A stretch of DNA of 64,000 nucleotides from NCBI RefSeq assembly GCF_040807025.1, contig NC_090973.1:981853-1045852 (forward strand), read 5' to 3'. This DNA comes from Struthio camelus (taxonomy: Eukaryota). The translations under genes were made by a program, and so were the position numbers. Below are positions 1,024 through 60,414 of the stretch, piece after piece (position 1 is the first letter of the stretch; each line of letters begins with the position of its first letter). The notes under the pieces are model-generated. The model was not told the DNA's origin. It did not search any database and was given only the letters and a program-made list of their open reading frames with translations.

Positions 1024-1135
1024 ATGCCGCACCAGTACCCGGCGCTGACGCCCGAGCAGAAGAAGGAGCTCGCCGACATCGCCCTGCGCATCGTCGCCCC
1101 CGGCAAGGGCATCCTCGCCGCCGATGAGTCCACCG
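1024..1135 (+). CDS. ALDOA: Fructose-bisphosphate aldolase A, coding exon 1 (start codon)
   Basis: Translates [37 protein letters not shown](G), near-identical to vertebrate ALDOA N-terminus. Kozak gccgccaccATGc. AG acceptor at 1011-1012 implies an upstream 5'UTR exon. GT donor at 1136. Confidence 0.92.
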
Positions 1136-1900
1136 GTGCGGCGCTGGGAGCACTGGGAGGGGAGCGGGGGGCACTGGGAGGGGATTGGGGGGCACCAGGT
1201 GGCGCTGGGAGGCACTGGGAGGGGACTGGGGGGTTCCCAGGTGGCACTGGGGGGCACTAGGGTGAGATCAGGGGCACTGGGGAGCACTGGGAGAAGATTG
1301 GGGGGCACTAGGTGGTGCTGGGAGGGGACTGGGAGGTGCTGGGAGGGGACTGGGGGCTCTCAGGTGGCACTGGGGGGCACTAGGGTGAGATCAGGGGCAC
1401 TAGGGAGCACTGGGAGAAGATTAGGGGGCACTAGGTGGTGCTGGGAGGGGACTGGGAGGCACTGGGAGGGGACTGGGGGCTCTCAGGTGGCACTGGGGGG
1501 CACTAGGGTGAGATCAGGGGCACTGGGGAGCACTGGGAAAAGAGCAGGGAGGCTGTGGGAGTGAATTGAGGGGCACTGGGTGACACTGGAAAGGGATTGG
1601 GGGGCACTAGGTGACACTGGGAGAGGAGTTGGGGCATTGGGAGGGGATCGGGAGGCAGTGGGTGACACTGGGGGAGGGACTGGGAGCACTGGGAGGAGAT
1701 CGGGGCACTGGGAGGGATCGGGAGGCAGTGGGTGATGCTGGGAGGGAATGGGGTGACATTAGGTGATACTGGGGAGGACTGGGAGGTCTTGGGAGGGGAT
1801 TGGGGGCACTGGGTGGGACTGGAAGTTGCTGGTGGAAGACTAGGAGGTTACTGGGGAGAACTACAAAAGCATTAGGAGGCACTGGGTGACGCTGGGAGGG
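1136..1900. repeat. ALDOA intron 1 G-rich minisatellite (ggcactgggagggga; ~122-bp higher-order unit x3 at 1244-1610)
   Basis: The first units, caccaggtggcgctgggagg at 1193-1213, copy the donor region caccggtgcggcgctgggag at 1130-1150. Confidence 0.9.
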
Positions 1901-2900
1901 CACTGGGTGACCCCAGGTGAGACCAGGAGGAGCCCAGGTGGCCCCAGGTGAGTCTGGGAGCACTGGGAGCCCCACAACCCCTGGCATCCCTGGTGCAACG
2001 GGAGCGTGGGTGCCACCAGGGTGCCCATGGGTGACCGCAGGTGACGCTGGGTGACCCCAGGGTGCCACTGGGGGTTACAGGGTGACCCCAGGTGAGACTG
2101 GGAGGCCCTGGGAGCACTGGGAGCCCCACAACCCCTGGCAACCCTGGTGCAACGGGAGCGTGGGTGCCACCAGGGTGCCCATGGGTGACTGCAGGTGACG
2201 CTGGGTGACCCCAGGGTGCCACTGGGGGTTACAGGGTGGCCCCAGGTGAAATCAGGAGGCCCTGGGAGCCCCACAACCCCTGGCAACCCTGGTGCAACAG
2301 GAGCGTGGGTGCCACCAGGGTGCCCATGGGTGACTACAGGCGACAGTGGGAGAGCCCAGGTGCCACTGGGGGTTTCTAGGTGGCCGCAGGTGGCCACCAG
2401 GTGGCCCCAGGTGAGACCGGGAGGCCCTGAGAGCGCTGGGAGCCCCACAACCCCTGGCAACCCTGGTGCAACGGGAGCGTGGGTGCCACCAGGGTGCCCA
2501 TGGGTGACTGCAGGTGACGCTGGGTGACCCCAGGGTGCCACTGGGGGTTACAGGGTGGCCCCAGGTGAAATCAGGAGGCCCTGGGAGCCCCACAACCCCT
2601 GGCAACCCTGGTGCAACAGGAGCGTGGGTGCCACCAGGGTGCCCATGGGTGACTGCAGGCGACAGTGGGAGAGCCCAGGTGCCACTGGGGGTTTCTAGGT
2701 GGCCGCAGGTGGCCACCAGATGGCCCCAGGTGAGACCGGGAGGCCCTGAGAGCGCTGGGAGCCCCACAACCCCTGGCAACCCTGGTGCAACGGGAGCGTG
2801 GGTGCCACCAGGGTGCCCATGGGTGACTGCAGGTGACGCTGGGTGACCCCAGGGTGCTACTGGGGGTTTCTAGGTGGCCCCAGGTGGCCACCAGGTGGCC
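1900..2900. repeat. 319-bp higher-order tandem repeat x3 (~160-bp subunit) in ALDOA intron 1
   Basis: The track shows identical 110-aa ORFs at 2195 and 2514, offset by 319 bp. A CTCF-like core CCACCAGGGTGCC recurs about 6 times. Confidence 0.9.
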
Positions 2901-3015
2901 CCAGGTGAGACCGGGAGGCCTTGGGAGCACCGGGAGCCCCGCAAAGCCCAGCCGCCTGGGGTGGCGTGGGTGCCGCGGGCGGCCCCGGCGGGTGACGCGG
3001 GCGGCCCCGGCGCAG

Positions 3016-3227
3016 GCAGCATCGCCAAGCGGCTGAGCTCGGTGGGGGCGGAGAACACGGAGGAGAACCGCCGCTGGTACCGCCAGCTGCTCTTCACGGC
3101 CGACCAGCGCGTCGACCCCTGCATCGGCGGCGTCATCCTCTTCCACGAGACCCTCTACCAGAAGGCCGACGACGGGCGCCCCTTCCCCGCCGTCATCCGC
3201 GCCAAGGGCGGCCTCGTCGGCATCAAG
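3016..3227 (+). CDS. ALDOA: ALDOA coding exon 2
   Basis: cag acceptor 3013-3015. Encodes [71 protein letters not shown]. Phase continues exon 1. GT donor 3228. Confidence 0.92.
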
Positions 3228-3239
3228 GTGGGGACGTCG

Positions 3240-4690
3240 GGGGGAGGCGGAGGCGTTGGGGAGATGGGGGGAAGTTGAGGGAACGTTGAGGGACGGTGGT
3301 GGACACAGAGATGTTGAGGGGATGCAGGGACGTTGGGGAGGCGTGGAGATGTTGAGGGAACGTTGGGGCACGGTGGTGGGCGCAGAGAGGTTGAGGGGAC
3401 GCAGGGGCGTTGGGGAGGCGTGGAGATGTTGAGGGAACGTTGGGGCACGGTGGTGGGCGCAGAGACGTTGAGGGGACGCAGGGACGTTGGGGAGATGTGG
3501 AGATGTTGAGGGAACGTTGGGGCACGGTGGTGGACGCAGAGAGGTTGAGGGGACGCAGGGACGTTGGGGAGATGTGGAGCCGTTGAGGGAACGTTGGGGG
3601 ACGGTGGTGGACGCAGAGATGTTGAGGGGACATTGGGGAGGCGTGGAGACGTTGAGGGAACGTTGGGGCACGGTGGTGGGCACAGAAGTTGAGGGGACGC
3701 ATGGACATTGGGGAGGTGTGGAGATGTTGAGGGAGCGTTGGGGGACGGTGGTGGACACACAGGTGTTGAGGGGACGCAGGGACGTTGGGGAGACACGGAG
3801 CCGTTGAGGGAACGTTGGGGGACGGTGGTGGATGCAGAGATGTTGAGGGGACGCAGGGATATTAGGGAGGCGTGGAGATGTTGAAGGAACGTTAGGGGAC
3901 AGTGGTGGACACGGAGAGGTTGAGGGGGACGTAAGGACGTTGGGGAGACGTGGAGCCGTTGGGGGACGGTGGTGGACGCAGAGATGTTGAGGGAACATTG
4001 GGGAGGCGTGGAGACGTTGAGGGAACGTTGGGGCATGGTGGTGGGCACAGAGAGGTTGAGGGGACGCAGGGACGTTGGGGAGGCGTGGAGATGTTGAGGG
4101 AGCGTTGGCGGACGTTGGTGGACACAGAGGTTGAGGGGACGCAGGGACGTTGGGGGGACGTGGAGCCGTTGAGGGAGCGTTGGGGGACGGTGATGTTGAT
4201 GGGATGCAAGGACGTTGGGGAGATGCGGAGACGTCGAGGGGACGTTGGGGGACATGGAGGTGACAGGATGTGCGGATGTTGGACACGGGGACACAAAGGG
4301 GACGCAAGGACGTCGGGGAGATGCAGAGCCGATTAGAGGACGTTGGGGGACACGGAGACGTGGATGCGACGTGGAGACGTTGGGGGGGGGACGTGGAGGG
4401 GACACTGGGGGACGTAGAGATGTGGAGGGGACGTGGGGATGTTGGGAGACAAGGAGACGTTGAGGGGACGTCGGGGGACGTGGAGACATGAAGGGGACGT
4501 AGGGACGATGGGGCACAAGGGGACATTGGGGACGTTGAGGGACACGGGGATGGTGGGGGAACGTAGTCTCAGAGTGGGGACATCGAGGGGACGTTGGGGG
4601 AGACAGGGACGTTGGGGGGATGTGGGGGACGTGGGGACGGGGTGGCCATGGAGCCAGGCCAGCTCCCAGTGACCGTGTCCCCGCGTCCCC
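3240..4690. repeat. ALDOA intron 2 ~80-bp G-rich minisatellite (gttgagggaacgttggggcacggtggtgggcgcagagaggttgaggggacgcagggacgttggggaggcgtggagat)
   Basis: About 18 tandem units. The subsequence ggtggtggacacagaggttgagggg resembles the exon-3 start ggtggacaagggggttgtg. Confidence 0.9.
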
Positions 4691-4701
4691 CCCCCCCCCA
4701 G

Positions 4702-4756
4702 GTGGACAAGGGGGTTGTGCCCCTGGCTGGCACCAATGGCGAGACCACCACCCAGG
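4702..4756 (+). CDS. ALDOA: ALDOA coding exon 3
   Basis: Polypyrimidine tract plus AG at 4700-4701. Encodes VDKGVVPLAGTNGETTTQ(G). gtgagt donor at 4757. Confidence 0.9.
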
Positions 4757-4759
4757 GTG

Positions 4760-6300
4760 AGTGACCGTCCCCGAGGGTGGCCTCATGTCCCTGCAAGGTC
4801 TCCAAGGGTGGCCCCGAGGGTGTCCCCATGTCCCCAAGGGTATTCCTAGGTCCTTAGGAAGTCCCCAAAGATGTCCTCAAGGGCTTCTCGGGTCCCCAAG
4901 GGCGTCCCCAGGTCCCCAAGGGCGTCCCTGAGGGCTTCCCTGTGTCCCCAAAGGGGTCCTCGTGTCCCCAAGAGGTTCTCTAGGGTATTTCGGTGTCCCC
5001 AGGTCCCCAAGGGTGTCCCCAAGGGGGTCCCTGTGTCCCCAAGCGGTGCCCAACATTGTTCCTGTGTCCTCATCGGCATCCCAGTGTCCCTGGCTGTGTC
5101 TGCGTGTCCCCAAGGCTGTCCCCGTGTCCCCGAAGCTGTCCCCAAGTCCTCTCTGCCTTCTCCACCTTCCCAAGGCTGTCCCCGTGTTCCCTATGTCATC
5201 TCTGTCTCTCCAACGCTGTCCCCAAGGCCATCTGTGTCCCCGACGCCATCCCCGTGGCTCTCCCCACGCGTTCCCTGCCACCATCCCCACCTCCTCGCCG
5301 GTGTCCCCAAGGCCGTCCCAGTGTCCCCAAGGCCATTGCCATCACCATCTCCATGCCTCTCCCTGCGCGGTCCCTGCTGGTGTCCCCGAGGCCATCCCCC
5401 AATGCCACCCCATGTCCCCGAGGCCATCTCCACGTCCCTACGGCCATCTCTGCGTCCCCAAACCCATGACTGACCCCATCTCTGTGGTTCAGTCCCCGCT
5501 GGTGTCCCCGAGGCCGTCCCCAAATGCCACCCCATGTCCCCTACGGCCATCTCTGCGTCCCCAAGCCCATGACCAACCGCATCTCCGTGGTTCAGTCCCC
5601 ACTGGTGTCCCCGAGGCCATCCCCCAATGCCACCCCATGTCCCCGAGGCCATCTCCACATCCCTACGGCCATCTCTGCGTCCCCAAGCCCATGACCAACC
5701 CCAACTCCGTGGTTCAGTCCCTGCTGGTGTCCCCGAGGCCATCCCCCAATGCCACCCCATGTCCCCGAGGCCATCTCCCACGTCCCTACGGCCATCTCTG
5801 CGTCCCCAAGCCCATGACCAACCGCATCTCCGTGGTTCAGTCCCCACTGGTGTCCCCGAGGCCGTCCCCAACTGCCACCCCATGTCCCCGAGGCCATCTC
5901 CACATCCCTACGGCCATCTCTGCGTCCCCAAGCCCATGACTGACCCCATCTCCGTGGTTCAGTCCCCACTGGTGTCCCCAAGGCCGTGCCCCAAGGCCAT
6001 CCCCATGTCCCCTACGGCCATCTCTGCGTCCCCAAACCCATGACTGACCCCATCTCCGTGGTTCAGTCCCTGCTGGTGTCCCCAAGGCCGTCCCCAACTG
6101 CCACCCCATGTCCCCGAGGCCATCTCCACATCCCTACGGCCATCTCTGCGTCCCCAAGCCCATAACCAACCCCATCTCCACGGTTCTCCATGGTCCCCGA
6201 GGCCATCTCCACGTCCCTACGGCCATCTCTGCGTCCCCAATGCTGCCCCCCGCCGTCGTCCTCGTGGCCGTGTCCCCCTCCCCCCCCCATCCCCACCCGC
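4760..6300. repeat. ALDOA intron 3 minisatellites: ~20-bp gtccccaagggtgtcccc (4780-5200) then ~120-bp unit containing ccatctctgcgtccccaagcccatgaccaacc (5200-6250)
   Basis: The periodicity shows in the repeated ORF peptides [23 protein letters not shown]. Confidence 0.9.
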
Positions 6301-6327
6301 GTCCCCACGGTGTCCCCGCGCGCCCAG

Positions 6328-6488
6328 GCCTGGACGGGCTGATGGAGCGCTGCGCCCAGTACAAGAAGGACGGGGCCGACTTCGCCAAGTGGCGCTGCGT
6401 GCTCAAGATCTCGGAGCACACGCCCTCGCGCCTCGCCATCATGGAGAACGCCAACGTCCTCGCCCGCTACGCCAGCATCTGCCAGCAG
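6328..6488 (+). CDS. ALDOA: ALDOA coding exon 4
   Basis: cag acceptor 6325-6327. Encodes [55 protein letters not shown] donor 6489. Confidence 0.92.
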
Positions 6489-6489
6489 G

Positions 6490-7335
6490 TCTGTCACCCC
6501 CGCCCCAGACGTGGCGTGGGGTGCCGGCGGGTCCCCGCCTCCTTTTGTCACCTGGGAGGGGTTGGAGAGCTCCCGGCGTCGGTGTGTCACCCCCTCCCGG
6601 GGGTGGCTGGGGACCTCCCGGCTGGGCTGTCGCGCCGGGACGCGATGCGGTGGCGTGTCCCTGCGTTCCCTCTCGTCACCCCGGGGTGGCCGGGGGTCTC
6701 CTGGCCGCGGCGCGGCGCCGGGACGCGACGTCGGTGGTGTCCTTGCGTCGCCTCTTGGCGCTCTGGGATGGCCGGAGATGTCCCGGCGGTGTCGTAGCGC
6801 CGGGATGTGGCCTTGGCGGCCTTCCCGCGTCACCTGCTGCCACCCCGAGGTGGCTGGGGATCTCCTGGCTGCGCTGTGGCACTGGGACGTGGCTTCGGCC
6901 ACGTCCCTGTGCCACCTGCTGCCACCTCGGGGTGGCTGGGGACATGCTGGTTCCACCGTGGTGCTGGGACGTGGTTTTGGTGGCGTTCCTGTGTCACCTC
7001 GGGATGGCTGGGGACTTCCTGGTTGTGTCGTGGTGCCAGGAGATGGCCTTGGCAGTGTCCCTGTGTCGCCTAGTGTCCCCTCCTGTCACCATGGGGTGGC
7101 TGGGGAGCTCCTGGCTGCGCTGTGACACCCAGACGTGGCTTTGGTAGCATCTCTGCGTCACTTGCTGTCACCCCCGGGGTGGCTGGGGGCCTCCTGGTTG
7201 TGCCGTGATGCCGGGACGCGGCCTTGGCGGGGCCCTTGTGTCACCTATTGTCACCCCGAGGGGGCTGGGCACCTCCTGGCTGTGGGTCCGTGTGCCCTTG
7301 TGTCGCCCCAGGGTGGCCGGCTGCCCCCAGGTGTC
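6490..7335. repeat. ALDOA intron 4 ~85-95-bp minisatellite (gtcacc..ggggtggctgggga.ctccyggctg.gctgt..cgccgggacg)
   Basis: About 9 units that start directly at the donor (gtctgtcaccc). Confidence 0.85.
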
Positions 7336-7371
7336 CTCGCACGTCCCCCAACTCGTGCCCTGTCCCCCCAG

Positions 7372-7455
7372 AACGGCATCGTCCCCATCGTGGAGCCCGA
7401 GATCCTCCCTGACGGCGACCACGACCTCAAGCGCTGCCAGTACGTCACGGAGAAG
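7372..7455 (+). CDS. ALDOA: ALDOA coding exon 5
   Basis: AG acceptor 7370-7371. Encodes [30 protein letters not shown] donor 7456. Confidence 0.92.
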
Positions 7456-7540
7456 GTGGGTGTCCCCGCGTTCCCCGCCGCGTCCCCAACCGCCTCCCTG
7501 TCCCCGCCGCGTCCGCAACGTGTCCCCGCCGCGTCCCCAG

Positions 7541-7715
7541 GTGCTGGCGGCCGTCTACAAGGCGCTGAGCGACCACCACGTCTACCTGGAGGGGACCCTG
7601 CTCAAGCCCAACATGGTGACGGCGGGTCACGCCTGTCCCAAGAAGTACAGCCCCGAGGAGATCGCCATGGCCACCGTCACTGCCCTGCGGCGCACCGTGC
7701 CACCCGCCGTCCCCG
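7541..7715 (+). CDS. ALDOA: ALDOA coding exon 6
   Basis: cag acceptor 7538-7540. Encodes [58 protein letters not shown](G). gtgag donor 7716. Confidence 0.92.
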
Positions 7716-7805
7716 GTGAGCCTCGGTGGCACCGGCGTGGCCCTGGGTTGGCCCCATCCCCTACGGCCGCGTCGCGCCGCGGCTGACGTCCCCGTCCCCG
7801 CGCAG

Positions 7806-8005
7806 GCATCACGTTCCTGTCCGGGGGCCAGAGCGAGGAGGAGGCGTCGCTGAACCTCAACGCCATCAACCGGTGCCCGCTGGCGCGGCCCTGGGCCCTG
7901 ACCTTCTCCTACGGGCGGGCGCTGCAGGCCTCGGCCCTGCGCGCCTGGGCCGGCAAGCGCGACAACACCAAGGCCGCCCAGGAGGAGTACGTCAAGCGCG
8001 CCCTG
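7806..8005 (+). CDS. ALDOA: ALDOA coding exon 7
   Basis: cag acceptor 7803-7805. Encodes (G)[66 protein letters not shown]. gtaggt donor 8006. Confidence 0.92.
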
Positions 8006-10330
8006 GTAGGTGGGGGGACGCGGCGGGGACGTGGGGATGGGGGTCGTGGTGGGACGTGGGTTCTGGTGGGACGTGGTGACATGGATTGTGGTGGGACGTG
8101 GGGATGGGTGTCGTGGTGGGAGGTGGAGGCAGGAGGACGGGGTGCTGGTGGGACGTGGTTGACATGAGGATAGCGGCTGTGGTGGGGCATGGGGACAGGG
8201 CTCCTGGTGGGATGTGGTGACATGGGGACAGGGGTGCTGGTGGGACAGGGTGATATGGGGACGGGGGTCATGGTGGGGCGTGGAGACATGAGGACAGGGG
8301 TGCTGGTGGGACATGAGGACATGGAGATGAAGGTCCTGGTGGGATGTGGTGACATGGGGATGGGGGTGCTGGTGGGACGTGGTGATGTGGGGACGGGGAT
8401 CCTGGTGGGACATGGGGACATGGAGGTCCTGGTGGGACGTGGGGACATGGGGACGGGGGTCGTGGTGGGACGTGGGGACATAGAGATGGAGGTCCTGGTG
8501 GAACGTGGTGACATGGGGATGGGGTGCTGGTGGGACGTGGGGACATGGAGATGGAGGTCCTGGTGGGATGTGGGGACATTGGGACGGGGGTCCTGGTGGG
8601 ATGTGGTGACGTGGGACGTGGTGACGTGGGGATGGAGGTCCTGGTGGGACGTGGGGACGGGGGTCCTGGTGGGACGTGGTGACGTGGGGACGGGGGTCGT
8701 GGTGGGACGTGGGGACGGAGGTCCTGGTGGGAGGTGGGGACGGGGGTGCTGGTGGGACGTGGGGACATTGGGACAGGGGTCGTGGTGGGGCATGAGGACA
8801 TGGGGACGGGGGTGCTGGTGGAACGTGAGGACGTGGGTGCTGGTGGGACATGGTGACATGGGGATGTGCGTCGTGGTGGGACGTGAGGACATGGGGATGT
8901 GGATTGTGGTGGGACGTGGGGACGGGGGTGCTGGTGGGACGTGGGGACGGGGGTGCTGGTGGGACGTGGGGACATGGAGATGGAGGTCCTGGTGGGACGT
9001 GGGGACGTGGGGATGGGGGTCGTGGTGGGACGTGGGGACATGGAGATGGAGGTCCTGGTGGGACGTGGTGACGTGGTGACGGGGGTCATGGTGGGACATG
9101 AGGACGTGGAGACGGAGGTCCTGGTGGGACGTGGGGACGGGGGTCGTGGTGGGACATGAGGACGTGGAGATGGAGGTCCTGGTGGGAGGTGGGGACGGGG
9201 GTCATGGTGGGACATGAGGACGTGGAGATGGAGGTCCTGGTGGGAGGTGGGGACGGGGGTCGTGGTGGGACATGAGGACGTGGAGATGGAGGTCCTGGTG
9301 GGAGGTGGGGACGTGGAGATGGAGGTCCTGGTGGGATGTGGGGACGTGGTGACGGGGGTCGTGGTGGGACATGAGGACGTGGAGATGAAGGTCCTGGTGG
9401 GACGTGGGGACGTGGAGATGGAGGTCCTGGTGGGACGTGGTGACGTGGTGATGGGGGTTGTGGTGGGACATGAGAACATGGAGATGGAGGTCCTGGTGGG
9501 AGGTGGTGACGGGGGTCGTGGTGGGACATGAGGACATGGAGATGGAGGTCCTGGTGGGACGTGGGGACGTGGAGATGGAGGTCCTGGTGGGACGTGGTGA
9601 CGGGGGTCATGGTGGGACATGAGGACGTGGAGACGGAGGTCCTGGTGGGACGGGGGGACGGGGGTCGTGGTGGGACATGAGGACGTGGAGATGGAGGTCC
9701 TGGTGGGACGTGGGGACGGGGGTCGTGGTGGGACACGAGGACGTGGAGATGGAGGTCCTGGTGGGACGTGGGGACGGGGGTTGTGGTGGGACGTGGGGGC
9801 ATGGAGATGAAGGTCCTGGTGGGACATAAGGACATGGGGACGTGGGTCGTGGTGGGACATGGGGACATGGGGACGTGGTGACGGGGGTCGTGGTGGGACA
9901 TGAGGACGTGGAGATGAAGGTCCTGGTGGGACATGAGAACATGGGGACGTGGGTCGTGGTGGGACATGGGGATGTGGGTCCTGGTGGGACATGGGGACAT
10001 GGGGACGGGGGTCGTGGTGGGACACGAGGACGTGGAGATGGAGGTCCTGGTGGGACGTGGTGATGTGGTGATGGGGGTTGTGGTGGGACATGAGAACGTG
10101 GAGATGGAGGTCCTGGTGGGACGTGGTGACGTGGTGATGGGGGTTGTGGTGGGACGTGAGGACGTGGAGATGGAGGTCCTGGTGGGACGTGGTGACGTGG
10201 TGATGGGGGTTGTGGTGGGACATGAGAACGTGGAGATGGAGGTCCTGGTGGGACGTGGTGACATGGGGACGGGGGTCCTGGTGGGACGGGGGGACGGGGG
10301 GAGCGCGGGCGTCCGCGGCGTGACGCGCGG
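8006..10330. repeat. ALDOA intron 7 G-rich minisatellite (ggaggtcctggtgggacgtggggacatggagat, 30/60-bp units with higher-order structure)
   Basis: The unit resembles the donor region gccctggtaggtggggggacg. It fills essentially the whole 2.3-kb intron. Confidence 0.9.
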
Positions 10331-10346
10331 CTCCCTGCGCCCGCAG

Positions 10347-10442
10347 GCCAACTCGCTGGCGTGCCAGGGCAAGTACGCGCCCAGCGGGCCGGCGGGGGCC
10401 GCCGCCAGCGAGTCCCTCTTCATCTCCAACCACGCCTACTGA
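10347..10442 (+). CDS. ALDOA: ALDOA terminal coding exon (stop TGA 10440-10442)
   Basis: cag acceptor 10344-10346. Encodes [31 protein letters not shown]. The 8 exons sum to 1095 nt, giving 364 aa as expected for ALDOA. Confidence 0.92.
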
Positions 10443-16099: not shown

Positions 16100-16197
16100 A
16101 TGGGGGAGCCGAGCGACCTGGACCGGCAGATCGAGCAGCTGCGGCGCTGCGAGCTCATCAAGGAGAGCGAGGTGAAGGCCCTCTGCGCCAAGGCCAG
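16100..16197 (+). CDS. PPP4C: Serine/threonine-protein phosphatase 4 catalytic subunit, coding exon 1 (start codon)
   Basis: Encodes [32 protein letters not shown](R), which I recognise as the PPP4C N-terminus (human [33 protein letters not shown]). gtaccc donor at 16198. Confidence 0.92.
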
Positions 16198-16319: not shown

Positions 16320-16371
16320 GGAGATCCTGGTGGAGGAGAGCAACGTGCAGCGGGTGGACTCGCCCGTGACG
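16320..16371 (+). CDS. PPP4C: PPP4C coding exon 2
   Basis: cag acceptor 16317-16319. Encodes (R)EILVEESNVQRVDSPVT. gtgagc donor 16372. Confidence 0.9.
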
Positions 16372-16488: not shown

Positions 16489-16539
16489 GTGTGCGGCGAC
16501 ATCCATGGGCAGTTTTACGACCTCAAGGAGCTCTTCCGG
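16489..16539 (+). CDS. PPP4C: PPP4C coding exon 3
   Basis: cag acceptor 16486-16488. Encodes [17 protein letters not shown]. gtgagt donor 16540. Confidence 0.9.
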
Positions 16540-17835: not shown

Positions 17836-17937
17836 GTGGGGGGTGACGTCCCCGAGACCAACTACCTGTTCATGGGCGACTTCGTGGACCGGGGCTTCTA
17901 CAGCGTCGAGACCTTCCTGCTGCTCCTCGCCCTCAAG
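17836..17937 (+). CDS. PPP4C: PPP4C coding exon 4
   Basis: cag acceptor 17833-17835. Encodes [34 protein letters not shown] (metallophosphatase GDxVDRG motif). GT donor 17938. Confidence 0.92.
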
Positions 17938-18333: not shown

Positions 18334-18507
18334 GTGCGCTACCCCGACCGCATCACGCTGATCCGGGGCAACCACGAGAGCCGGCAGATCACGCAGGTCT
18401 ACGGCTTCTACGACGAGTGCCTGCGCAAGTACGGCTCCGTCACCGTCTGGCGCTACTGCACCGAGATCTTCGACTACCTCAGCCTCTCCGCCATCATCGA
18501 CGGCAAG
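18334..18507 (+). CDS. PPP4C: PPP4C coding exon 5
   Basis: cag acceptor 18331-18333. Encodes [58 protein letters not shown] (GNHE motif). gtgagc donor 18508. Confidence 0.92.
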
Positions 18508-18529: not shown

Positions 18530-20750
18530 CGGGTAGCCCCGCGGCGCTCCTGCGGGGTGGCTGTGCTGCACACGCTAAGCACACGCTAAGAACATGCATG
18601 TTGTGTCGCACGTTCTGCTCACCCGGGACCTCCCTGTGTCCATCCGTGCTGCCCCAGGGTGCTTGGGTAGCCCCGCGGCGCTCCTGCGGGGTGGCTATGC
18701 CGCACACGCTAAGCACACGCTAAGCACATGGGTGTCGCACGCTGTGCTGTGCTCACCCGGGACCTGCCCGTGTCCCTCCGTGCTGCCCCAGGGTGCTTGG
18801 GTAGCCCCGTGGCGCTCCTGCGGGGTGGCTATGCCGCACACGCTAAGCACACGCTAAGCACATGGGTGTCGCACGCTGTGCTGTGCTCACCTGGGACCTC
18901 CCTGTGTCCCTCCGTGCTGCCCCAGGGTGCTTGGGTAGCCCCGCGGCGCTCCTGCGGGGTGGCTGTGCCGCACACGCTAAGCACACGCTAAGCACATGGG
19001 TGTCGCACGCTGTGCTGTGCTCACCTGGGACCTGCCCGTGTCCATCCGTGCTGCCCCAGGGTGCTTGGGTAGCCCCGCAGCGCTCCTGCGGGGTGGCTGT
19101 GCTGCACATGCTAAGCACACACTAAAAACATGCATGTTGTGTCGCACGTTCTGCTCACCTGGGACCTGCCCATGTCCATCCGTGCTGCCCCAGGGTGCTT
19201 GGGTAGCCCCGCGGCGCTCCTGCGGGGTGGCTGTGCCGCACACGCTAAGCACACACTAAGCACATGGGTGTCGCACACTGTGCTGTGCTCACCCGGGACC
19301 TGCCCGTGTCCATCCGTGCTGCCCCAGGGTGCTTGGGTAGCCCCGCGGCGCTCCTGTGGGGGGGGCTGTGCCGCACACGCTAAGCACACGCTAAAAACAT
19401 GCATGTTGTGTTGCACGTTCTGCTCACCCGGGACCTGCCCGTGTCCCTCCGTGCTGCCCCAGGGTGCTTGGGTAGCCCCGTGGCGCTCCTGCGGGGTGGC
19501 TATGCCGCACACGCTAAGCACACGCTAAGCACATGGGTGTCGCACGCTGTGCTGTGCTCACCCGGGACCTGCCCGTGTCCCTCCGTGCTGCCCCAGGGTG
19601 CTTGGGTAGCACCGCGGCGCTCCTGCGGGGTGGCTGTGCCGCACACGCTAAGCACACGCTAAAAACATGCATGTTGTGTCGCACGTTCTGCTCACCCGGG
19701 ACCTGCCCGTGTCCCTCCGTGCTGCCCCAGGGTGCTTGGGTAGCCCCGTGGCGCTCCTGTGGGGGGGCTGTGCCGCACACGCTAAGCACACGCTAAAAAC
19801 ATGCATGTTGTGTCGCACGTTCTGCTCACCCGGGACCTGCCCGTGTCCCTCCGTGCTGCCCCAGGGTGCTTGGGTAGCCCCGCGGCGCTCCTGCGGGGTG
19901 GCTGTGCCGCACACGCTAAGCACACGCTAAGCACATGGGTGTCGCACGCTGTGCTGTGCTCACCCGGGACCTCCCTGTGTCCATCCGTGCTGCCCCAGGA
20001 TGCTTGGGTAGCCCCGTGGCGCTCCTGCGGGGTGGCTATGCCGCACACGCTAAGCACACGCTAAGCACATGGGTGTCGCACGCTGTGCTGTGCTCACCTG
20101 GGACCTGCCTGTGTCCATCCGTGCTGCCCCAGGGTGCTTGGGTAGCCCCGCGGCGCTCCTGCGGGGTGGCTGTGCCGCACACGCTAAGCACACGCTAAGC
20201 ACATGGGTGTCGCACGCTGTGCTGTGCTCACCTGGGACCTGCCCGTGTCCATCCGTGCTGCCCCAGGGTGCTTGGGTAGCCCCGCAGCGCTCCTGCGGGG
20301 TGGCTGTGCCGCACATGCTAAGCACACGCTAAAAACATGCATGTTGTGTTGCACGTTCTGCTCACCCGGGACCTGCCCGTGTCCCTCCGTGCTGCCCCAG
20401 GGTGCTTGGGTAGCCCCGTGGCGCTCCTGTGGGGTGGCTATGCCGCACACGCTAAGCACACGCTAAGCACATGGGTGTCGCACGCTGTGCTGTGCTCACC
20501 CGGGACCTGCCCGTGTCCATCCGTGCTGCCCCAGGGTGCTTGGGTAGCCCCGTGGCGCTCCTGTGGGGTGGCTATGCCGCACACGCTAAGCACACGCTAA
20601 GCACATGGGTGTCGCACGCTGTGCTGTGCTCACCCGGGACCTGCCCGTGTCCATCCGTGCTGCCCCAGGGTGCTTGGGTAGCCCCGCGGCGCTCCTGCGG
20701 GGGGGCTGTGCCGCACACGCTAAGCACACGCTAAGCACACGCATGTTAGG
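18530..20750. repeat. 134-bp tandem repeat x~16.5 in PPP4C intron 5
   Basis: Identical 87-aa ORFs recur every 134 bp on both strands. The unit ...gcacacgctaagcacatgggtgtcgcacgctgtgctgtgctcacccgggacctg... resembles the acceptor/exon-6 start cacgctaagcacacgcgtgtgccgtgcagATTTTCTGCGTGCACGGGGGCCTG. Confidence 0.95.
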
Positions 20751-21032
20751 CACCTTACTGTGCACCTTGCGTGTCCCTACGCGTGGCCACGTCGTTCTGA
20801 GGTACAGCGTAGGCCCCTCTTCCTTCTTGCAGGCCGAGTGTGCAGCACATACTAAGCACATGCTAAGCACACGCGTGTTGCATGCCCAACTTACACTGCC
20901 GCAGAGCCTAAGGGCTGGGCAGCGGGCCGGGGGCGCCCTGCGGTGACACGGGAAAGCCCGGCGGGGTGGGGGGGAAGGCCGGCGGGGGGCCGGCGGCACG
21001 GCCCACGCTAAGCACACGCGTGTGCCGTGCAG

Positions 21033-21159
21033 ATTTTCTGCGTGCACGGGGGCCTGTCGCCCTCCATCCAGACGCTGGACCAGATCCGCACCATCGACCG
21101 CAAGCAGGAGGTGCCCCACGACGGCCCCATGTGCGACCTGCTCTGGTCCGACCCCGAAG
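21033..21159 (+). CDS. PPP4C: PPP4C coding exon 6
   Basis: cag acceptor 21030-21032. Encodes [42 protein letters not shown](G). gtaggc donor 21160. Confidence 0.92.
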
Positions 21160-21164
21160 GTAGG

Positions 21165-22400
21165 CAGCCCACGCGAGGCGCACGCTAAGCCCACGCGAGG
21201 CGCACGCTAAGCCCACGCGAGGCGCACGCTAAGCCCACGCGAGGCCTGCTGCCGGCTGTGCAGGCGGGTGGTGTCTGTGCGGGGTGCTGACACGTAGCAA
21301 GCGTGTTGGAGGCGCAACGCACTGGGCGGCGTCCCCCCTGCGCGGGGCCGACACGCGTGTGCCACGCGTGTGGCCGACCCCACGGGCTGGCCCACGTCCC
21401 CGCACGGGGCCGACACGCGTGTGCCCGACCCCCCCGGGCCGGCCCGTGTCCCTACGCGGGGCCGACACGCGTGTGCCATGCGTGTGGCCGACCCCATGGG
21501 CTGGCCCACGTCCCCGCGCGGGGCCGACACGCGTGTGCCATGCGTGTGGCCGACCCCACGGGCTGGGCCACGTCCCCCCATGGGGCCGACACACGTGTGC
21601 CATGCGTGTGGCCGACCCCACGGGCTGGCCCACGTCCCCCCATTGGGCCGACACGCGTGTGCCATGCGTGTGGCCGACCCCGTAGGCTGGCCCACGTCCC
21701 CCCATGGGGCTGACACGCGTGTGCCATGCGTGTGGCCGACCCCGTAGGCTGGCCCACGTCCCCCCATGGGGCCGACACGCGTGTGCCATGCGTGTGGCCG
21801 ACCCCGTAGGCTGGGCCACGTCCCCGTGCGGGGCCGACACGCGTGTGCCATGCGTGTGGCCGACCCCGTAGGCTGGGCCACGTCCCCGTGCGGGGCCGAC
21901 ACGCGTGTGCCATGCGTGTGGCCGACCCCGTAGGCTGGCCCACGTCCCCCCATGGGGCCGACACGCGTGTGCCATGCGTGTGGCCGACCCCGTAGGCTGG
22001 GCTACGTCCCCCCATGGGGCCGACACGCGTGTGCCATGCGTGTGGCCGACCCCGTAGGCTGGCCCACGTCCCCCCATGGGGCCGACACGCGTGTGCCATG
22101 CGTGTGGCCGACCCCGTAGGCTGGGCCACGTCCCCGTGCGGGGCCGACACGCGTGTGCCATGCGTGTGGCCGACCCCGTAGGCTGGCCCACGTCCCCCCA
22201 TGGGGCCGACACGCGTGTGCCATGCGTGTGGCCGACCCCGTAGGCTGGCCCACGTCCCCCCATGGGGCCGACACGCGTGTGCCATGCGTGTGGCCGACCC
22301 CGTAGGCTGGGCTACGTCCCCCCATGGGGCCGACACGCGTGTGCCCCGTGCGTGGCTGACCCCCCGTGGCCGACACGCGTGTGTCCCCCCCCCACGCGCG
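21165..22400. repeat. PPP4C intron 6 arrays: 22-bp cccacgcgaggcgcacgctaag x4 (21165-21250) and 62-bp unit gccgacacgcgtgtgccatgcgtgtggccgaccccgtaggctggcccacgtccccccatggg x~17 (21300-22350)
   Basis: The 62-bp unit is homologous to the exon-7 start. Repeat ccacgggctggcccacgtccccgcacggggccgac matches exon ccacgggctggggcgtgtccccgcgcggcgccggc. At peptide level, repeat [13 protein letters not shown] matches exon [13 protein letters not shown]. The unit contains the palindrome ACACGCGTGT. Confidence 0.9.
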
Positions 22401-22404
22401 GCAG

Positions 22405-22594
22405 ACACCACGGGCTGGGGCGTGTCCCCGCGCGGCGCCGGCTACCTCTTCGGCAGCGACGTGGTGGCCCAGTTCAACGCGGCCAACGACATCGACATGA
22501 TCTGCCGGGCCCACCAGCTCGTCATGGAGGGCTACAAGTGGCACTTCGGCGAGACCGTCCTCACCGTCTGGTCCGCCCCCAACTACTGCTACCG
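22405..22594 (+). CDS. PPP4C: PPP4C coding exon 7
   Basis: cag acceptor 22402-22404. Encodes (D)[62 protein letters not shown](R). gtgagg donor 22595. Confidence 0.92.
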
Positions 22595-22599
22595 GTGAG

Positions 22600-25500
22600 G
22601 GGGACGCCCGCGGGGACACGGGGACAAGCGTGGTGCTCTAACACGTCCCCGACGACGGAGAACGTGACCGGGGATGGAGATGGGGGGACGTGACCGAGGA
22701 CGGGATGGGGACGGGGGGGGACATGACCGAGGTTGGGATGGGGATGAGGGGACGTGACCAAGGACGGGATGGGGACATGGGGGGACATGACCGAGGACGG
22801 GATGGGGACATGGGGGGACATGACCGAGGACGGGATGGGGACATGGGGGGACATGACCAAGGACGGGATGGGGACATGGGGAGACTTGAGTGAGGATGGG
22901 GACAGGTGGTGACCGGGGACGGGACGGAGGAGACGTCACCGGGGATGGGGGGAACGTGACCGAGGACGAGGACAGAAGGACGCGACTGGGGGTGGGACGA
23001 GGGGACATGACCGAGGACGGGATGGGGATGAGGGGACGTGACCAAGGACGGGATGGGGACATGGGGGGACATGACCGAGGATGGGATGGGGACATGGGGG
23101 GACATGACCGAGGACGGGATGGGGACGGGGTGACATGACCGAGGACGGGATGGGGACATGGGGAGACTTGAGTGAGGATGGGGGCGGGTGGTGACCGGGG
23201 ACAGGGACGCGGGGATGCGGGTGGTGACCGGGGACGGGACGGAGGGGACGTCACCGGGGATGGGGGGAACGTGACCGAGGACGAGGACAGAAGGACGCGA
23301 CTGGGGGTGGGACGAGGGGACATGACCGAGGACGGGATGGGGATGAGGGGACGTGACCAAGGACGGGATGGGGACATGGGGGGACATGACCGAGGATGGG
23401 ATGGGGACATGGGGGGACATGACCGAGGACGGGATGGGGACGGGGTGACATGACCGAGGACGGGATGGGGACATGGGGAGACTTGAGTGAGGATGGGGGC
23501 GGGTGGTGACCGGGGACAGGGACGCGGGGATGCGGGTGGTGACCGGGGACGGGACGGAGGGGACGTCACCGGGGATGGGGGGAACATGACCGAGGACGAG
23601 GACAGAAGGACACGACTGGGGATGGGACGAGGGAACATGACCGAGGACGGGATGGGGATGAGGGGACATGACCGAGGACGGGATGGGGACATGGGGGGAC
23701 ATGACCGAGGACGGGATGGGGACATGGGGAGACTTGAGTGAGGATGGGGGCGGGTGGTGACCGGGGACAGGGACGCGGGGATGCGGGTGGTGACCGGGGA
23801 CGGGACGGAGGGGACGTCACCGGGGATGGGGGGAACATGACCGAGGACGAGGACAGAAGGACACGACTGGGGGTGGGACGAGGGGACATGACCGAGGACG
23901 GGATGGGGACGAGGGGACGTGACCAAGGACGGGATGGGGACATGGGGGGACATGACCGAGGACGGGATGGGGACATGGGGAGACTTGAGTGAGGATGGGG
24001 GCGGGTGGTGACCGGGGACGGGACGGAGGGGACGTCACCGGGGATGGGGGGAACGTGACCGAGGACGAGGACAGAAGGACGCGACTGGGGATGGGGACAT
24101 GGGGGGACGTGACCGAGGACGGGATGGGGATGAGGGGACATGACCGAGGACGGGATGGGGACATGGGGGGACATGACCGAGGATGGGATGGGGACATGGG
24201 GGGACATGACCAAGGACGGGATGGGGACATGGGGGGACGTGACCGAGGACGGGATGGGGATGAGGGGACATGACCGAGGACGGGATGGGGATGAGGGGAC
24301 GTGACCAAGGACGGGATGGGGACATGGGGGGACATGACCAAGGACGGGATGGGGACATGGGGGGACATGACCGAGGACGGGATGGGGACGGGGTGACATG
24401 ACCGAGGATGGGATGGGGACATGGGGAGACTTGAGTGAGGATGGGGACAGGTGGTGACCGGGGACGGGACGGAGGAGACGTCACCGGGGATGGGGGGAAC
24501 GTGACCGAGGACGAGGACAGAAGGACGCGACTGGGGGTGGGACGAGGGGACATGACCGAGGACGGGAAGGGGATGAGGGGACATGACCAAGGACGGGATG
24601 GGGACATGGGGGGACATGACCGAGGACGGGATGGGGATGAGGGGACATGACCGAGAACGGGATGGGGACGGGGGGGGAGTTGACTGAGGATGGGGGCGGG
24701 TGGTGACCGGGGACGGGACGGAGGAGACGTCACCGGGGATGGGGGGAACGTGACCGAGGACGAGGACAGAAGGACGCGACTGGGGGTGGGACGAGGTGAC
24801 ATGACCGAGGACGGGATGGGGATGAGGGGACGTGACCAAGGACGGGATGGGGACATGGGGGGACGTGACCAAGGACGGGATGGGGACATGGGGAGACTTG
24901 AGTGAGGATGGGGACAGGTGGTGACCGGGGACGGGACGGAGGAGACGTCACCGGGGATGGGGGGAACGTGACCGAGGACGAGGACAGAAGGACGCGACTG
25001 GGGATGGGACGAGGGGACATGACCAAGGACGGGATGGGGACATGGGGGGACATGACCGAGGACGGGATGGGGACGGGGTGACATGACCGAGGACGGGATG
25101 GGGACATGGGGAGACTTGAGTGAGGATGGGGGCGGGTGGTGACCGGGGACAGGGACGCGGGGATGCGGGTGGTGACCGGGGACGGGACGGAGGGGACGTC
25201 ACCGGGGATGGGGGGAACATGACCGAGGACGAGGACAGAAGGACGCGACTGGGGGTGGGACGAGGGGGAACGTGACTAAGGATGGGGACGGGGGGACGTG
25301 ACTGGGGACGGGAGGAGGTGACCGGGGACAGGACGGAGGGGACATGACTGGGGACGGGGAGAGGGGGAGGTGACCAGGGATGGGGACGGAGGACACATGA
25401 CCGGGGATGGGGACAAGGGGGACATGACCAAGGGCGAGGATGAGGGAGCGTGACCGGGGACAGGAGGAGGCGACCAGGGATGGGACAGAGGGGACATGAC

Positions 25501-26112: not shown

Positions 26113-26242
26113 GTGTGGCAACGTGGCGGCCATCTTGGAGCTGGACGAGCACCTGCAGAAGGAGTTCATCATCTTCGAGGCGGCGCCGCAGGAGACCCGC
26201 GGCATCCCCTCCAAGAAGCCCGTGGCCGACTACTTCCTGTGA
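26113..26242 (+). CDS. PPP4C: PPP4C terminal coding exon (stop TGA 26240-26242)
   Basis: cag acceptor 26110-26112. Encodes (R)[42 protein letters not shown]. The 8 exons sum to 924 nt, giving 307 aa as expected for PPP4C. Confidence 0.92.
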
Positions 26243-26389: not shown

Positions 26390-27200
26390 GCGCACGCGTG
26401 GCCCGTCCCGGGGGCCACGCGTCCCGTCCCGTGTCGTCCCGGGGGCCACGTGTGTCCTGTCCCAGGGGCCACGTCATTCCAGGGGACACGCGTGTTGCGT
26501 AGTGTATCATCCTGGGGCAGGCGGGTCCCATCCCGTGTCATTCCCGGGGACACGCGTGTCCCATCCTGTATCGTCCTGGCACACGCATGTCCTGTCCCGG
26601 GGGACACGTGTCCCGTCCCGTGTCGTCCTGCGGGACACACGTGTCATGTGTCGTCCTGGGGCACGTGTGTCTTGTCTCAGGGGACGTGCGTGTCCCGTCC
26701 CGTGTCATTCCGGGGGACACGCGTGTCCCGACCCGGGGGACACGCGTCCCGTCCCGGAGGACACGCGTGTCGCGTCGTGTGTCATCCTGGGGCACGTGTG
26801 TCCCATCGCGGGGGACATGTGTGTCCCATCTTGTGTCATTCCGGGGGACACGCGGCGTCCCAGGGGACATGCACGTCCTGTCCCAGGCAGGTCCTGTCCT
26901 GTGTCGTCCTAGGGGACACGCGTGTCCCATCCCGCGTCCCTGGGGTCAAGGGTTTCCCTTTCCCTGTGTCCCCTTGGGGCGCCCGTGACCCCTGGGGACG
27001 CCTGTGACCCCCACCCGTGTCCCCTCCCAGATCCCCGGCCCCTGGGGACCCCTGTGACCCCCCCCCAGGGACACGCGTGTCCCCTCCCCTGGCCCCTGGG
27101 GACACCTGTGACCCCCCAGGGACATGCGTGTCCCCTCCTATGAGCCCTGGGGACCCCTTTGACCCCCAGGGACACGCGTGTCCCCTCCCATGACGCCAGG
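26390..27200. repeat. Array of the 16-bp perfect palindrome GGGACACGCGTGTCCC (>=6 exact, ~10 variant copies) in the PPP4C 3' region
   Basis: Exact copies are at ~26546, 26712, 26905, 27068 and 27168. Variants have CACGTG E-box or ACGCGT cores, with 30-60-bp spacing. It would form hairpins if transcribed as 3'UTR. Confidence 0.85.
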
Positions 27201-53439: not shown

Positions 53440-54480
53440 GGGGGCTGCCGGGGGCCGCCCGAGTGCCTCCCGGCCCCTTGGGGGGGGGGACTGGGGGGGG
53501 TTGGGTGTTGGTGACGGTGTGCAGGCACCTCGAGAGCTGCTCGTGGTGTTGGTGGGAGGTGCCGCGGGGTGTGGGGTGGTGTTGAGCGTGTGTGAGTGGC
53601 TCGGGGGCTGTTCGTGGTGGTGGTGGGAGGTGCCAGGGGGTTGTGGGTATTGGGGATGGTGTGCAGGCACCTTGGGGGCTGCTCAGGGTGTTGTTGGGAG
53701 GTGCTGGGGGGGTTGGGTGTTGTTGAGCATGTGCTGGCACCTTGGGGGCTGCTCAGGGTGTTGTTGGGAGGTGCTGGGGGGGTTGGGTGTTGTTGAGCAT
53801 GTGCTGGCACCTTGGGGGCTGCTCAGGGTGTTGTTGGGAGGTGCTAGGGGGTTGTGAGTGTTGTTGGTTGTGCGTGGGCACCTCGGGGGCTGCTCGTGGT
53901 GTTGTTGGGAGGTGCTGGGAGGTTGTGGGTGTTGTTGGTTGTGTGTGGACACCTTGGGCTGCTTGTGGCATTGTTGGGAGGTGCCGGAGGGTTGTGGGTG
54001 TTGGTTGTGTGTGGACACCTCAGGGGCTGCTCGTGGCGTTGTTGGGAGGTGCCGGAGGGTTGTGGGTGTTGTTGGTTGTGTGTGGACACCACAGGGGCTG
54101 CTCGTGGCGTTGTTGGGAGGTGCTGGGAGGTTGTGGGTGTTGTTGGTTGTGTGTGGACACCTCAGGGGCTGCTCGTGGCGTTGTTGGGAGGTGCTGGGAG
54201 GTTGTGGGTGTTGTTGGTTGTGTGTGGACACCTCAGGGGCTGCTCGTGGCGTTGCTGGGAGGGGCCGGAGGGTTGTGGGTGTTGTTGGTTGTGTGTGGAC
54301 ACCACAGGGGCTGCTCGTGGCGTTGTTGGGAGGTGCTGGGAGGTTGTGGGTGTTGTTGGCTGTGTGCAGGCGGCTCGCGGTGTTGTTAGGAGGTGCCAGG
54401 AGGTTGTGAGCGTTGGCGGTTGCGCGCGGGCGCCTCGAGAGCTGCTCGGCCGTTTCACCCCGCGGCTCCTGGGTGCTCCG
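53440..54480. repeat. G/T-rich ~60-bp minisatellite (ggctgctcgtggcgttgttgggaggtgctgggaggttgtgggtgttgttggttgtgtgtggacacctcag)
   Basis: About 16 units in the SRCAP intron between the GLGKT and SWGPHLII exons. Confidence 0.9.
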
Positions 54481-54540
54481 AGGGTACCCGGGACCCCCCC
54501 CGCCCCCGTCCCGGGGCTGACGCCCGCCGCCCCCCCGCAG

Positions 54541-54677
54541 GCAGCTGGGGCCCCCACCTCATCATCGTACCCACCAGCGTCATGCTCAACTGGGAGATGG
54601 AGCTCAAGCGCTGGTGCCCCAGCTTCAAGATCCTCACCTACTACGGGGCGCAGAAGGAGCGCAAGCTCAAGCGGCAG
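54541..54677 (+). CDS. SRCAP: SRCAP exon (SNF2 ATPase)
   Basis: cag acceptor 54538-54540. Encodes (G)[45 protein letters not shown]. gtgagg donor 54678. Confidence 0.9.
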
Positions 54678-54776
54678 GTGAGGGCGGCGGCGGGCCGGGT
54701 CGGGAGGCGGCGGGGTGCAGCCCCGACCCCCCTCACCCCGACCCGGCTCTGTGCCCCCCTGCCCCCCCCCCCGCAG

Positions 54777-54946
54777 GGCTGGACCAAGCCCAACGCCTTC
54801 CACGTGTGCATCACCTCCTACAAGCTGGTGCTGCAGGACCACCAGGCCTTCCGGCGCAAGAACTGGAAGTACCTCATCCTCGACGAGGCCCAGAACATCA
54901 AGAACTTCAAGTCGCAGCGCTGGCAGTCGCTGCTCAACTTCAACAG
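54777..54946 (+). CDS. SRCAP: SRCAP exon (SNF2 ATPase, DEAQ box)
   Basis: cag acceptor 54774-54776. Encodes [56 protein letters not shown](S). GT donor 54947. Confidence 0.9.
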
Positions 54947-55053
54947 GTGGCGGCGGCCGCCCGCGCCGGGCGCCCCCCCCCCCTCCCCGCCGTTGTCACC
55001 CGCGGGCCCTCACCGCCCTTTCTTTTGTCCTTCTTCCCGGCGGCGGGGGGCAG

Positions 55054-55246
55054 CCAGCGGCGCCTGTTGCTGACGGGGACGCCGCTGCAGAACAGCCTCA
55101 TGGAGCTGTGGTCGCTCATGCACTTCCTGATGCCCCACGTCTTCCAGTCGCACCGCGAGTTCAAGGAGTGGTTCTCCAACCCCCTCACCGGCATGATCGA
55201 GGGTAGCCAGGAGTACAACGAGAGCCTCGTCAAGCGGCTCCACAAG
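55054..55246 (+). CDS. SRCAP: SRCAP exon (SNF2 ATPase)
   Basis: cag acceptor 55051-55053. Encodes (S)[66 protein letters not shown] donor 55247. Confidence 0.9.
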
Positions 55247-55249
55247 GTG

Positions 55250-57000: not shown

Positions 57001-57038
57001 GGGGCACCTCCATATTTGACCCCCCCCCCCCCCCGCAG

Positions 57039-57496: not shown

Positions 57497-57499
57497 GTG

Positions 57500-60414
<2,915 letters not shown>

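Follow-up and report, generated by a model that had tools for sequence, protein, structure and literature searches.

The PPP4C locus

The region analysed here is a 64,000-nucleotide stretch of Struthio camelus DNA (assembly GCF_040807025.1, contig NC_090973.1, positions 981,853 to 1,045,852 of the forward strand), which is hereafter called the window. It contains the PPP4C gene on the plus strand. Intron 6 of this gene is occupied by an array of about 1.1 kb, in which about 17 direct tandem units each carry a copy of nucleotides 1–38 of exon 7.

According to tblastn and the spliced model, PPP4C consists of eight coding exons encoding 307 amino acids, and every intron is bounded by GT and AG. 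Coding exons 1–5 are located at 16100–16197, 16320–16371, 16489–16539, 17836–17937 and 18334–18507. Exon 6 (21033–21159; IFCVHGG...WSDPE) ends in phase 1, exon 7 (22405–22594) ends in ...NYCYR, and exon 8 (26113–26242) has the stop codon at 26242. Intron 6 (21160–22404) is 1,245 bp long with a G+C content of 75%, and the whole window has a G+C content of 68%. Tandem Repeats Finder (TRF) covers 72% of the window, 88%, 88% and 94% of PPP4C introns 5, 6 and 7, and 0% of the exons, including exon 7. Both Struthio camelus and Apteryx mantelli have an identical 307-residue protein on record under the name PPP4C. The top named database matches are PP4 catalytic subunits with 98–99% identity, and the nearest solved structures are those of PP2A-C.

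Repeats of this kind are already known. In chicken, "sequence stuttering" has been described, and it is called "exon stuttering" if the repeated block includes a lateral part of an exon together with its splice site (Hron et al., 2026; Genome Biol Evol evag038, PMC12954441). Exon stuttering was found in 115 genes and 236 introns, 190 of these on dot chromosomes. In these cases, the median length of the exon part is 36 bp, more than 90% of the copies begin no farther than 1 nt from the exon border, the number of copies ranges from 1 to 44, and the span has a median of 1,751 bp. The authors emphasize expansions that are recent, species-specific and polymorphic, and as possible mechanisms they propose replication stress with repair linked to G-quadruplexes, or meiotic gene conversion. 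Chicken PPP4C (chromosome 38) and ALDOA, a gene that is also present in the window, are both in the list of Supplementary Figure 5 of that paper. Chromosome 38, which carries both genes in chicken, is a dot chromosome, and one orthologous record is only 638 kb long. Other birds are treated only briefly in the same paper. The age of such an array, its recurrence at one junction, microhomology at the breakpoints and the loss of the copied AG, which are considered below, go beyond the literature.

Structure of the intron 6 array

In a preliminary description, which was made from the letters of this DNA only, a 62-bp unit was reported to be repeated about 17 times in PPP4C intron 6. The TRF result agrees well, with a period of 62 bp, 16.6 copies and 91% matches at 21344–22363. 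When the motif GACACGCGTGTG was used as an anchor, 15 units measured 62 bp and one 52 bp, and a further, truncated unit had 40 bp. The final anchor, at 22372, leads into the last part of intron 6 and then into exon 7. The end unit of the array is thus the authentic exon–intron junction at 22372–22442, on the progenitor side, which is composed of the last 33 nt of intron 6 and exon-7 nt 1–38.

The alignment of unit 1 with 22372–22442 gave 53 identities out of 65 positions in register, with one 8-nt insertion and one 2-nt deletion, and a MAFFT alignment likewise supports this end copy. As the whole unit is in register with this segment, the duplicated element is the junction and not a fragment of the exon. 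The copied block runs from 22372 to exon nt 38, so that it crosses the exon–intron border and includes the splice site. In the preliminary description, the similarity had been confined to the first 35 nt of exon 7. Homology to the start of the exon holds, but this limit is too narrow, because the unit also matches the 33 nt of intron. The exon string quoted there is present at 22408–22442; it corresponds to exon nt 4–38 and is not the exon start, since the exon begins at 22405. The quoted 35-nt repeat ccacgggctggcccacgtccccgcacggggccgac is present at 21380–21414, but it is taken from unit 1, the first and most exon-like one, and is not the consensus. Counted directly, unit 1 agrees with the exon string in 28/35 positions, and the interior consensus agrees with it in 23/35.

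The array begins with a partial unit (ctgggcggcgtcccccctgcgcggggcc) at 21322–21349, which aligns to exon nt 11–37 with a local score of 25. Five edge units (62, 52, 62, 62 and 62 bp) follow at 21350–21649. Edge units 1, 3, 4 and 5 are the closest to the exon (31–34 of 43 positions identical to the junction), and CCACGGGCTGG is kept in units 1, 4 and 5. The second edge unit, of 52 bp, is degenerate (29/48). Eleven homogenized interior units of the variants A, B and C occupy 21650–22331, with 28–32/43 identities to the junction. Five A units are identical to one another, and a further copy at 21650 (A') matches A in 61/62 positions; three B units and two C units are likewise identical within each variant. 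Every interior unit has the derived sequence GTAGGC. The interior units are arranged in the order A' A B B A C A B A A C, which hints at a higher-order repeat of about 4–5 units that TRF missed. A truncated, degenerate unit of 40 nt (22332–22371) is located between the interior and the end unit. The identity to the junction is about 66–74% for the interior units and about 66–80% for the copies overall.

The splice site itself is altered in the copies. The authentic acceptor AG is located at 22403–22404, and a run of nine C residues at 22385–22393 forms the polypyrimidine tract. The 8-nt insertion relative to unit 1 corresponds to this run, and thus the repeat units lack a polypyrimidine tract. 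At the aligned acceptor position, gccg|ac is found in all the 62-bp units, against gcag|ac in the real junction. The AG has mutated to CG, and it is kept in none of the array units. The homology to the exon stops at GCCGGC|TACC, where the units read GCCGAC|ACGCG, so that the unit boundary is a short direct repeat. AG dinucleotides are also scarce in the whole array, with 11 present where base composition predicts about 39. This depletion was rejected as evidence in its own right, since a single unit is in effect counted over and over.

Similarity between the array and the exon-7 junction

The junction segment 22372–22445 was compared with the array, and dinucleotide shuffles served as the null (means 19–23, standard deviation 3–4). 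The observed score was 51, or 46 without the GACACGCGTGTG motif, and neither value was reached by any of 2000 shuffles. The exon part by itself gave a local alignment score of 37, against 19 ± 3 in its shuffles (22 ± 4 for the junction), and this score was again reached in 0 of 2000 shuffles. With real sequence as the null, about 17,900 pieces were taken from the same window, and on neither strand did any of them attain the observed score. Thus, the comparison with shuffled controls that had been suggested in the preliminary description turned out in favour of its proposal.

An ungapped scan was also performed, in which the exon-like 43 nt of each unit were compared with 125,512 positions outside the array on both strands. 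For every unit variant, the top position was 22400, the exon-7 acceptor junction, on the same strand. Unit 1 has 34 of 43 matches there, against a null mean of 13.3 (standard deviation 3.2, maximum 28); from the extrapolated tail, about 0.005 positions with at least 34 matches are expected window-wide. This top position is just the one at which a further unit of the array would be expected.

When each exon was tested against its adjacent intron at 14 PPP4C and 10 ALDOA boundaries, only the exon-7 acceptor was significant (z = 5.6). None of the other 23 boundaries, 13 in PPP4C and 10 in ALDOA, resembles its adjacent intron (all z ≤ 1.8), and no copies of the exon-7 donor end were found in intron 7 of the window (z = -1.2). 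The array had been introduced in the preliminary description as a second independent case in this window. For the first case, which was sought at the PPP4C and ALDOA boundaries, these tests give no corroboration. The derivation of the array from the acceptor boundary of exon 7 is upheld by the shuffles, the same-window null, the 23 control boundaries and the orthologous introns described below.

The similarity could in principle come about by chance or by composition, if an unrelated GC-rich minisatellite shared the common motifs GTCCCC, CACG and GGCC with the junction. Such motifs are abundant in a window so rich in G+C and tandem repeats. The nearest real-sequence competitors have scores of 43 and 36 against the array, which they owe to GACACGCGTGT or to a run of poly-C/GGGCCGGC; the motif GACACGCGTGT is therefore not specific evidence. 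Three further results weigh against a derivation from the junction. First, the GACACGCGTGTG part of the unit was rejected as specific evidence, since this motif also occurs at 26600–26900 and at the 3' end of intron 5. Second, the peptide reported to be encoded by the repeat and to parallel the real one is indeed encoded by two variant-C units (21960 and 22270), but its similarity is not significant by itself (tblastn E = 0.6–5.7). The period of 62 is not divisible by 3, and in-frame stops are present in the array. Third, the window fails the published screen, blastn-short of an exon against the proximal intron with a match of at least 20 nt and a bit score of at least 42.1 (Hron et al., 2026), for every PPP4C exon. 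The best match between exon 7 and intron 6 is 17 nt with 26.3 bits. This failure is attributed to decay of the copies, and the threshold is a detection limit rather than a definition. Chance likeness is nevertheless extremely improbable. With every unit variant, the junction comes out on top, and it exceeds the highest value elsewhere in the window by 6 matches. It is also in register with the array, its score is attained neither by the shuffles nor by real pieces of the window, and the other 23 boundaries remain at z ≤ 1.8. In addition, unmistakable copies of the same junction are present in other bird lineages.

Intron 6 in other species

Two orthologous palaeognath loci, L001 (GCA_036417845.1) and L002 (GCA_036370855.1), have PPP4C exons 94–100% identical to those of the window, and intron 6 is filled with arrays in both. 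The periods are about 155 bp in L001 and 50/181 bp in L002. The first L001 unit matches its own junction in 36/48 positions and reads CCG, whereas later L001 units retain CAG. Unit 1 of the window and an L002 unit align with a score of 51 (shuffle maximum 38), and both have CCCACGTCC where the exon has GGCGTGTCC. In the MAFFT alignment, the units of the window, L001 and L002 lose homology at one and the same exon position and resume with ACGCGTG. The derived states in common are ACCCC in place of ACACC, CCG in place of CAG (the window and the first L001 unit), and CCCACGTCC (the window and L002). The 20–34% divergence of the copies from a strongly conserved exon implies age. We read these arrays as probable products of one old capture followed by lineage-specific remodelling in the three palaeognaths, with weak support from L001.

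Two comparisons tell against a single origin. The L002 units do not resemble their own exon (z = 1.4, no copy scoring at least 30), and the similarity between the window and L001 units is weak (z = 3.6 for the full unit and 1.8 for the exon-like part). The single origin consequently depends mainly on the common breakpoint and a few derived bases, and L002 bears on it only through the common breakpoint and the similarity to the window unit. It is also conceivable that the arrays arose by exon stuttering but that the junction was captured independently in each palaeognath lineage at a hotspot. Independent expansion in related species has been inferred before (Hron et al., 2026), the unit lengths differ (62, about 155 and 50/181 bp), and the passerines described below demonstrate that a separate capture with a different breakpoint can occur. 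Separate captures would have to reproduce the same exon endpoint followed by ACGCGTG in all three loci and the derived bases listed above, and they would have to be old in view of the divergence. Thus, we regard independent capture as unlikely.

In the passerine loci L005, L006 and L007, intron 6 contains 4, 3 and 17 pseudo-junctions, respectively, with 40–48 of 48 positions identical to the real junction. Each of them keeps the full pyrimidine tract, the CAG and exon nt 1–45. These loci pass the published screen with 4, 3 and 17 matches. Within the exon, the copies end at TTACCTGT, a sequence that matches the TCACCTGT repeat of the intron itself. This breakpoint differs from the palaeognath one, which indicates an independent event.

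Junction copies are not found everywhere. In three further passerine loci, intron 6 contains repeats, but none of them is a copy of the junction. The tit loci L011 (GCA_030490865.1) and L012 (GCA_000331425.1) have a short intron 6 (147–156 bp) with no array and no copies, L017 has a non-repetitive intron 6 of 220 bp with no copies, and the rattlesnake intron of 997 bp has no copies either. The introns without copies in the two tit loci, L017 and the snake are taken as the ancestral state. In the archelosaur locus L016, there are no junction copies, and the intron ends with ...ctgacacacgcgtgttccccccccag, which suggests that an intron end made of GACACGCGTGT plus poly-C is old. The question raised in the preliminary description, whether orthologous introns carry the array, thus has a mixed answer: related arrays are present in two palaeognaths and junction copies in three passerines, and there are none in the tits, the snake or L017.

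As GC-rich repeats are difficult to assemble, the possibility that the array was made or inflated by mis-assembly of long reads should be weighed. Some local variation of this kind may be technical according to Hron et al. (2026), and the L001 locus includes a run of 200 N, although outside intron 6. Independent assemblies of the window and of several other birds, however, all show intron-6 arrays, and the units in the window have structured variants and degenerate edges instead of being perfect copies. We see hardly any room for an artefact. The existence of the array is not in doubt, while the copy number could be wrong.

Other PPP4C junctions of passerines are repeated as well. In L003–L008 and L010, the first 23 or so codons of exon 5 are repeated 3–14 times upstream of the real exon 5, with a spacing of roughly 150–200 bp and mostly 83–96% amino-acid identity (for example, L003:12638–14849, L004:13325–15420 and L007:6706–8605). 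These repeats are a strong case of exon stuttering at another PPP4C junction, common to several assemblies. Inside L004, the gene caller even gives spurious mini-genes. Furthermore, the donor end of exon 7 is repeated through intron 7 (L007:16613–23479, L003:30218–31585, L005:23812–25707 and L006:23167–24548). The copies comprise the last 83 nt of the exon, or its last 17 nt or so together with the start of the intron, and several L007 copies are 99–100% identical. Both edges of exon 7 have therefore stuttered in those species. The PPP4C gene is 2.4–2.7 kb long in L011 and L012 and 23–33 kb long in L003–L007, a more than tenfold difference for the same protein. This difference is apparently due to the intronic arrays, and part of it may reflect repeats collapsed in short-read assembly.

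Probable origin and decay of the array

The homology, the register, the gradient of identity along the array, the loss of the AG and the distribution among species were all observed directly. In view of these observations, the intron-6 array is very probably a decayed case of exon stuttering, that is, a by-product of local tandem-duplication instability in an avian gene saturated with repeats, and not a functional element. The following course of events is proposed. In an ancestor of these palaeognaths, a segment of about 60–70 bp spanning the 3' end of intron 6 and the first 38–40 nt or so of exon 7 would have been duplicated in tandem. The breakpoints would lie at the short direct repeat (intronic GCCGAC and exonic GCCGGC), which is expected if replication slippage, template switching or unequal exchange was at work. 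The downstream copy would stay joined to exon 7 as the working acceptor, and the upstream copy would become an intronic pseudo-junction.

The array would then have grown by amplification of interior units that had already diverged, through unequal exchange or slippage, without the exon being copied again. Such amplification accounts for an interior whose units are mutually identical yet only about 66–74% exon-like, and for the most ancestral sequence at the 5' edge. Repeated copying of the exon does not fit, since it would make the exon-proximal units the most exon-like. In the course of decay, the copied acceptor would have lost its AG (CAG to CCG). With this loss and with no poly-C tract, the units of the window should not act as competing splice sites.

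An alternative is that the array has a function, as a set of splicing decoys or as a non-B DNA or RNA regulatory element tuning the removal of PPP4C intron 6 or the expression of the gene. Duplicated splice sites can matter, as in the minisatellite in intron 7 (IVS7) of human F7, where the pseudo-sites are potentially functional (PMC1557585). In the passerine copies, the tract and the CAG are complete and 45 nt of the exon are present, and intron-6 arrays occur in several bird lineages. On the other hand, the units of the window have neither an AG at the homologous position nor the poly-C tract. No match was found in an Rfam scan of 20900–22700 with E ≤ 1, and DNA folding of two units on either strand was no better than that of shuffles (z = -1.7 and -1.1). 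The unit differs in length and sequence from one species to another, the tits do without an array, and the period and the in-frame stops noted above also count against a function. A functional array is accordingly very unlikely, and for the window nothing in the sequence points to an evident function. For the passerine arrays in particular, a decoy role in splicing may be considered. The unit contains a palindrome of 10 nt, ACACGCGTGT, which was read directly. A special hairpin or cruciform was considered and rejected on the folding values given above.

Comparison with known repeat systems

The array resembles the exon stuttering of chicken in its main features. Tandem copies of a lateral exon part, the splice site and intron sequence lie in the neighbouring intron, while the exon remains intact. 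The exon part of 38 nt, the copying from the exon border, the 17 or so copies, the span of about 1.1 kb and the repeat content of the intron (88%) are all similar, and PPP4C itself is on the chicken list. The differences are that the window belongs to a palaeognath, that the copies are decayed and below the BLAST threshold, and that the acceptor AG is lost. The published work emphasizes recent expansions, whereas the presence of related arrays in two other palaeognaths suggests that such arrays have outlasted speciation. The identical interior units (five, three and two of the variants A, B and C) are compatible with recent amplification.

In the human F7 IVS7 minisatellite (2006; PMC1557585), the first unit spans the donor of exon 7, and the pseudo-sites are identical. 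The end unit is the real junction and the others are intronic pseudo-junctions, as in the present array, and the authentic site is normally used in F7. Unlike F7, with its identical sites on the donor side, the array in the window lies on the acceptor side, and its units lack the AG and the C9 tract. The copies of L005–L007 keep splice sites identical to the authentic one, and they are a closer acceptor-side analogue of F7 IVS7.

Classical GC-rich minisatellites arise from unique flanking sequence by slippage between short direct repeats. The array shares with them a unit of tens of base pairs, a high G+C content, degenerate edges, a homogenized interior and direct repeats at the unit boundary (GCCGAC/GCCGGC in the window and ACCTGT in the passerines). 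It differs in that the progenitor contains coding sequence and a splice acceptor, and in that nearly every long intron in its genomic surroundings is filled with arrays.

Implications

We tentatively suggest, as a possibility somewhat short of an even chance, that the PPP4C exon-7 acceptor is a recurrent, junction-specific hotspot. It may have been captured at least twice independently in birds, in palaeognaths and in passerines with different breakpoints and microhomologies, and one array may predate the divergence of the three palaeognaths. If so, exon stuttering would be ancient and long-lived across birds and largely unseen by screens with a BLAST threshold, and not just a recent instability centred on chicken. 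The contrast between old copies without AG and 17 intact pseudo-acceptors in a passerine would then mean that decoy sites are tolerated first and erased later.

The array in the window is a well-resolved example of how exon stuttering may start and age, with fossil-like edges, a homogenized interior and a lost acceptor, and the junction copy can still be recognized in spite of its strong divergence. The comparison among birds suggests that junction capture is repeatable, that breakpoints fall at microhomologies, and that screens with a threshold count too few of the old events. In the passerine loci, up to 17 pseudo-acceptors of identical sequence precede the real acceptor, and these loci would be a natural test bed for the choice of the 3' splice site, as a mirror of the F7 donor model. 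Arrays of this kind would also explain annotation noise, such as the spurious mini-genes in L004, and the difficulty of assembling these genes.

Neighbouring repeats and genes

Another array lies at the opposite end of intron 6. It is a perfect 22-bp repeat of 3.6 copies (AGCCCACGCGAGGCGCACGCTA) found by TRF at 21166–21245, which starts 6 nt past the exon-6 donor and is intronic only. It is not derived from exon 6 by the tests used (donor side of exon 6 against intron 6, z = 1.2). This array belongs to a family with the motif CACACGC(T/C)AAG, which is also found in a 134-bp array of 16.5 copies in intron 5 (18531–20739) and at the end of intron 5, where the last 30 nt (21001–21032) read cacgctaagcacacgcgtgtgccgtgcag|exon 6. 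The motif is also present in the 155-bp units of L001 intron 6 (L001:7744–9003). According to this distribution, related repeat families flank exon 6 on both sides.

On the 3' side of the PPP4C stop codon, a repeat at 26600–26900 is rich in the palindromic GGGGACACGCGTGTCCC, and it has the ACACGCGTGT core as in the intron-6 unit. This repeat is the top non-junction match to the intron-6 array (score 43–53).

The genes in the window are arranged in the order ALDOA, PPP4C and a gene of the SNF2 family. ALDOA is complete on the plus strand at 1024–10442, with eight coding exons, 364 residues and GT-AG throughout (Pfam Glycolytic, E = 2e-184). Its long introns are packed with arrays with periods of 33–320 bp. 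Although chicken ALDOA is on the published list (PMC12954441), none of the 10 testable boundaries of ALDOA in the window resembles the adjacent array. Open reading frame fragments of an SNF2-family helicase are located at about 54416–57596 on the plus strand (Pfam SNF2-rel_dom, E = 2e-10), and the second fragment reads ...LMQLRKVCNHPNLFDPRPI... These fragments match the HSA/SNF2 gene located directly downstream of PPP4C in L011 and L012, and thus the gene order is conserved.

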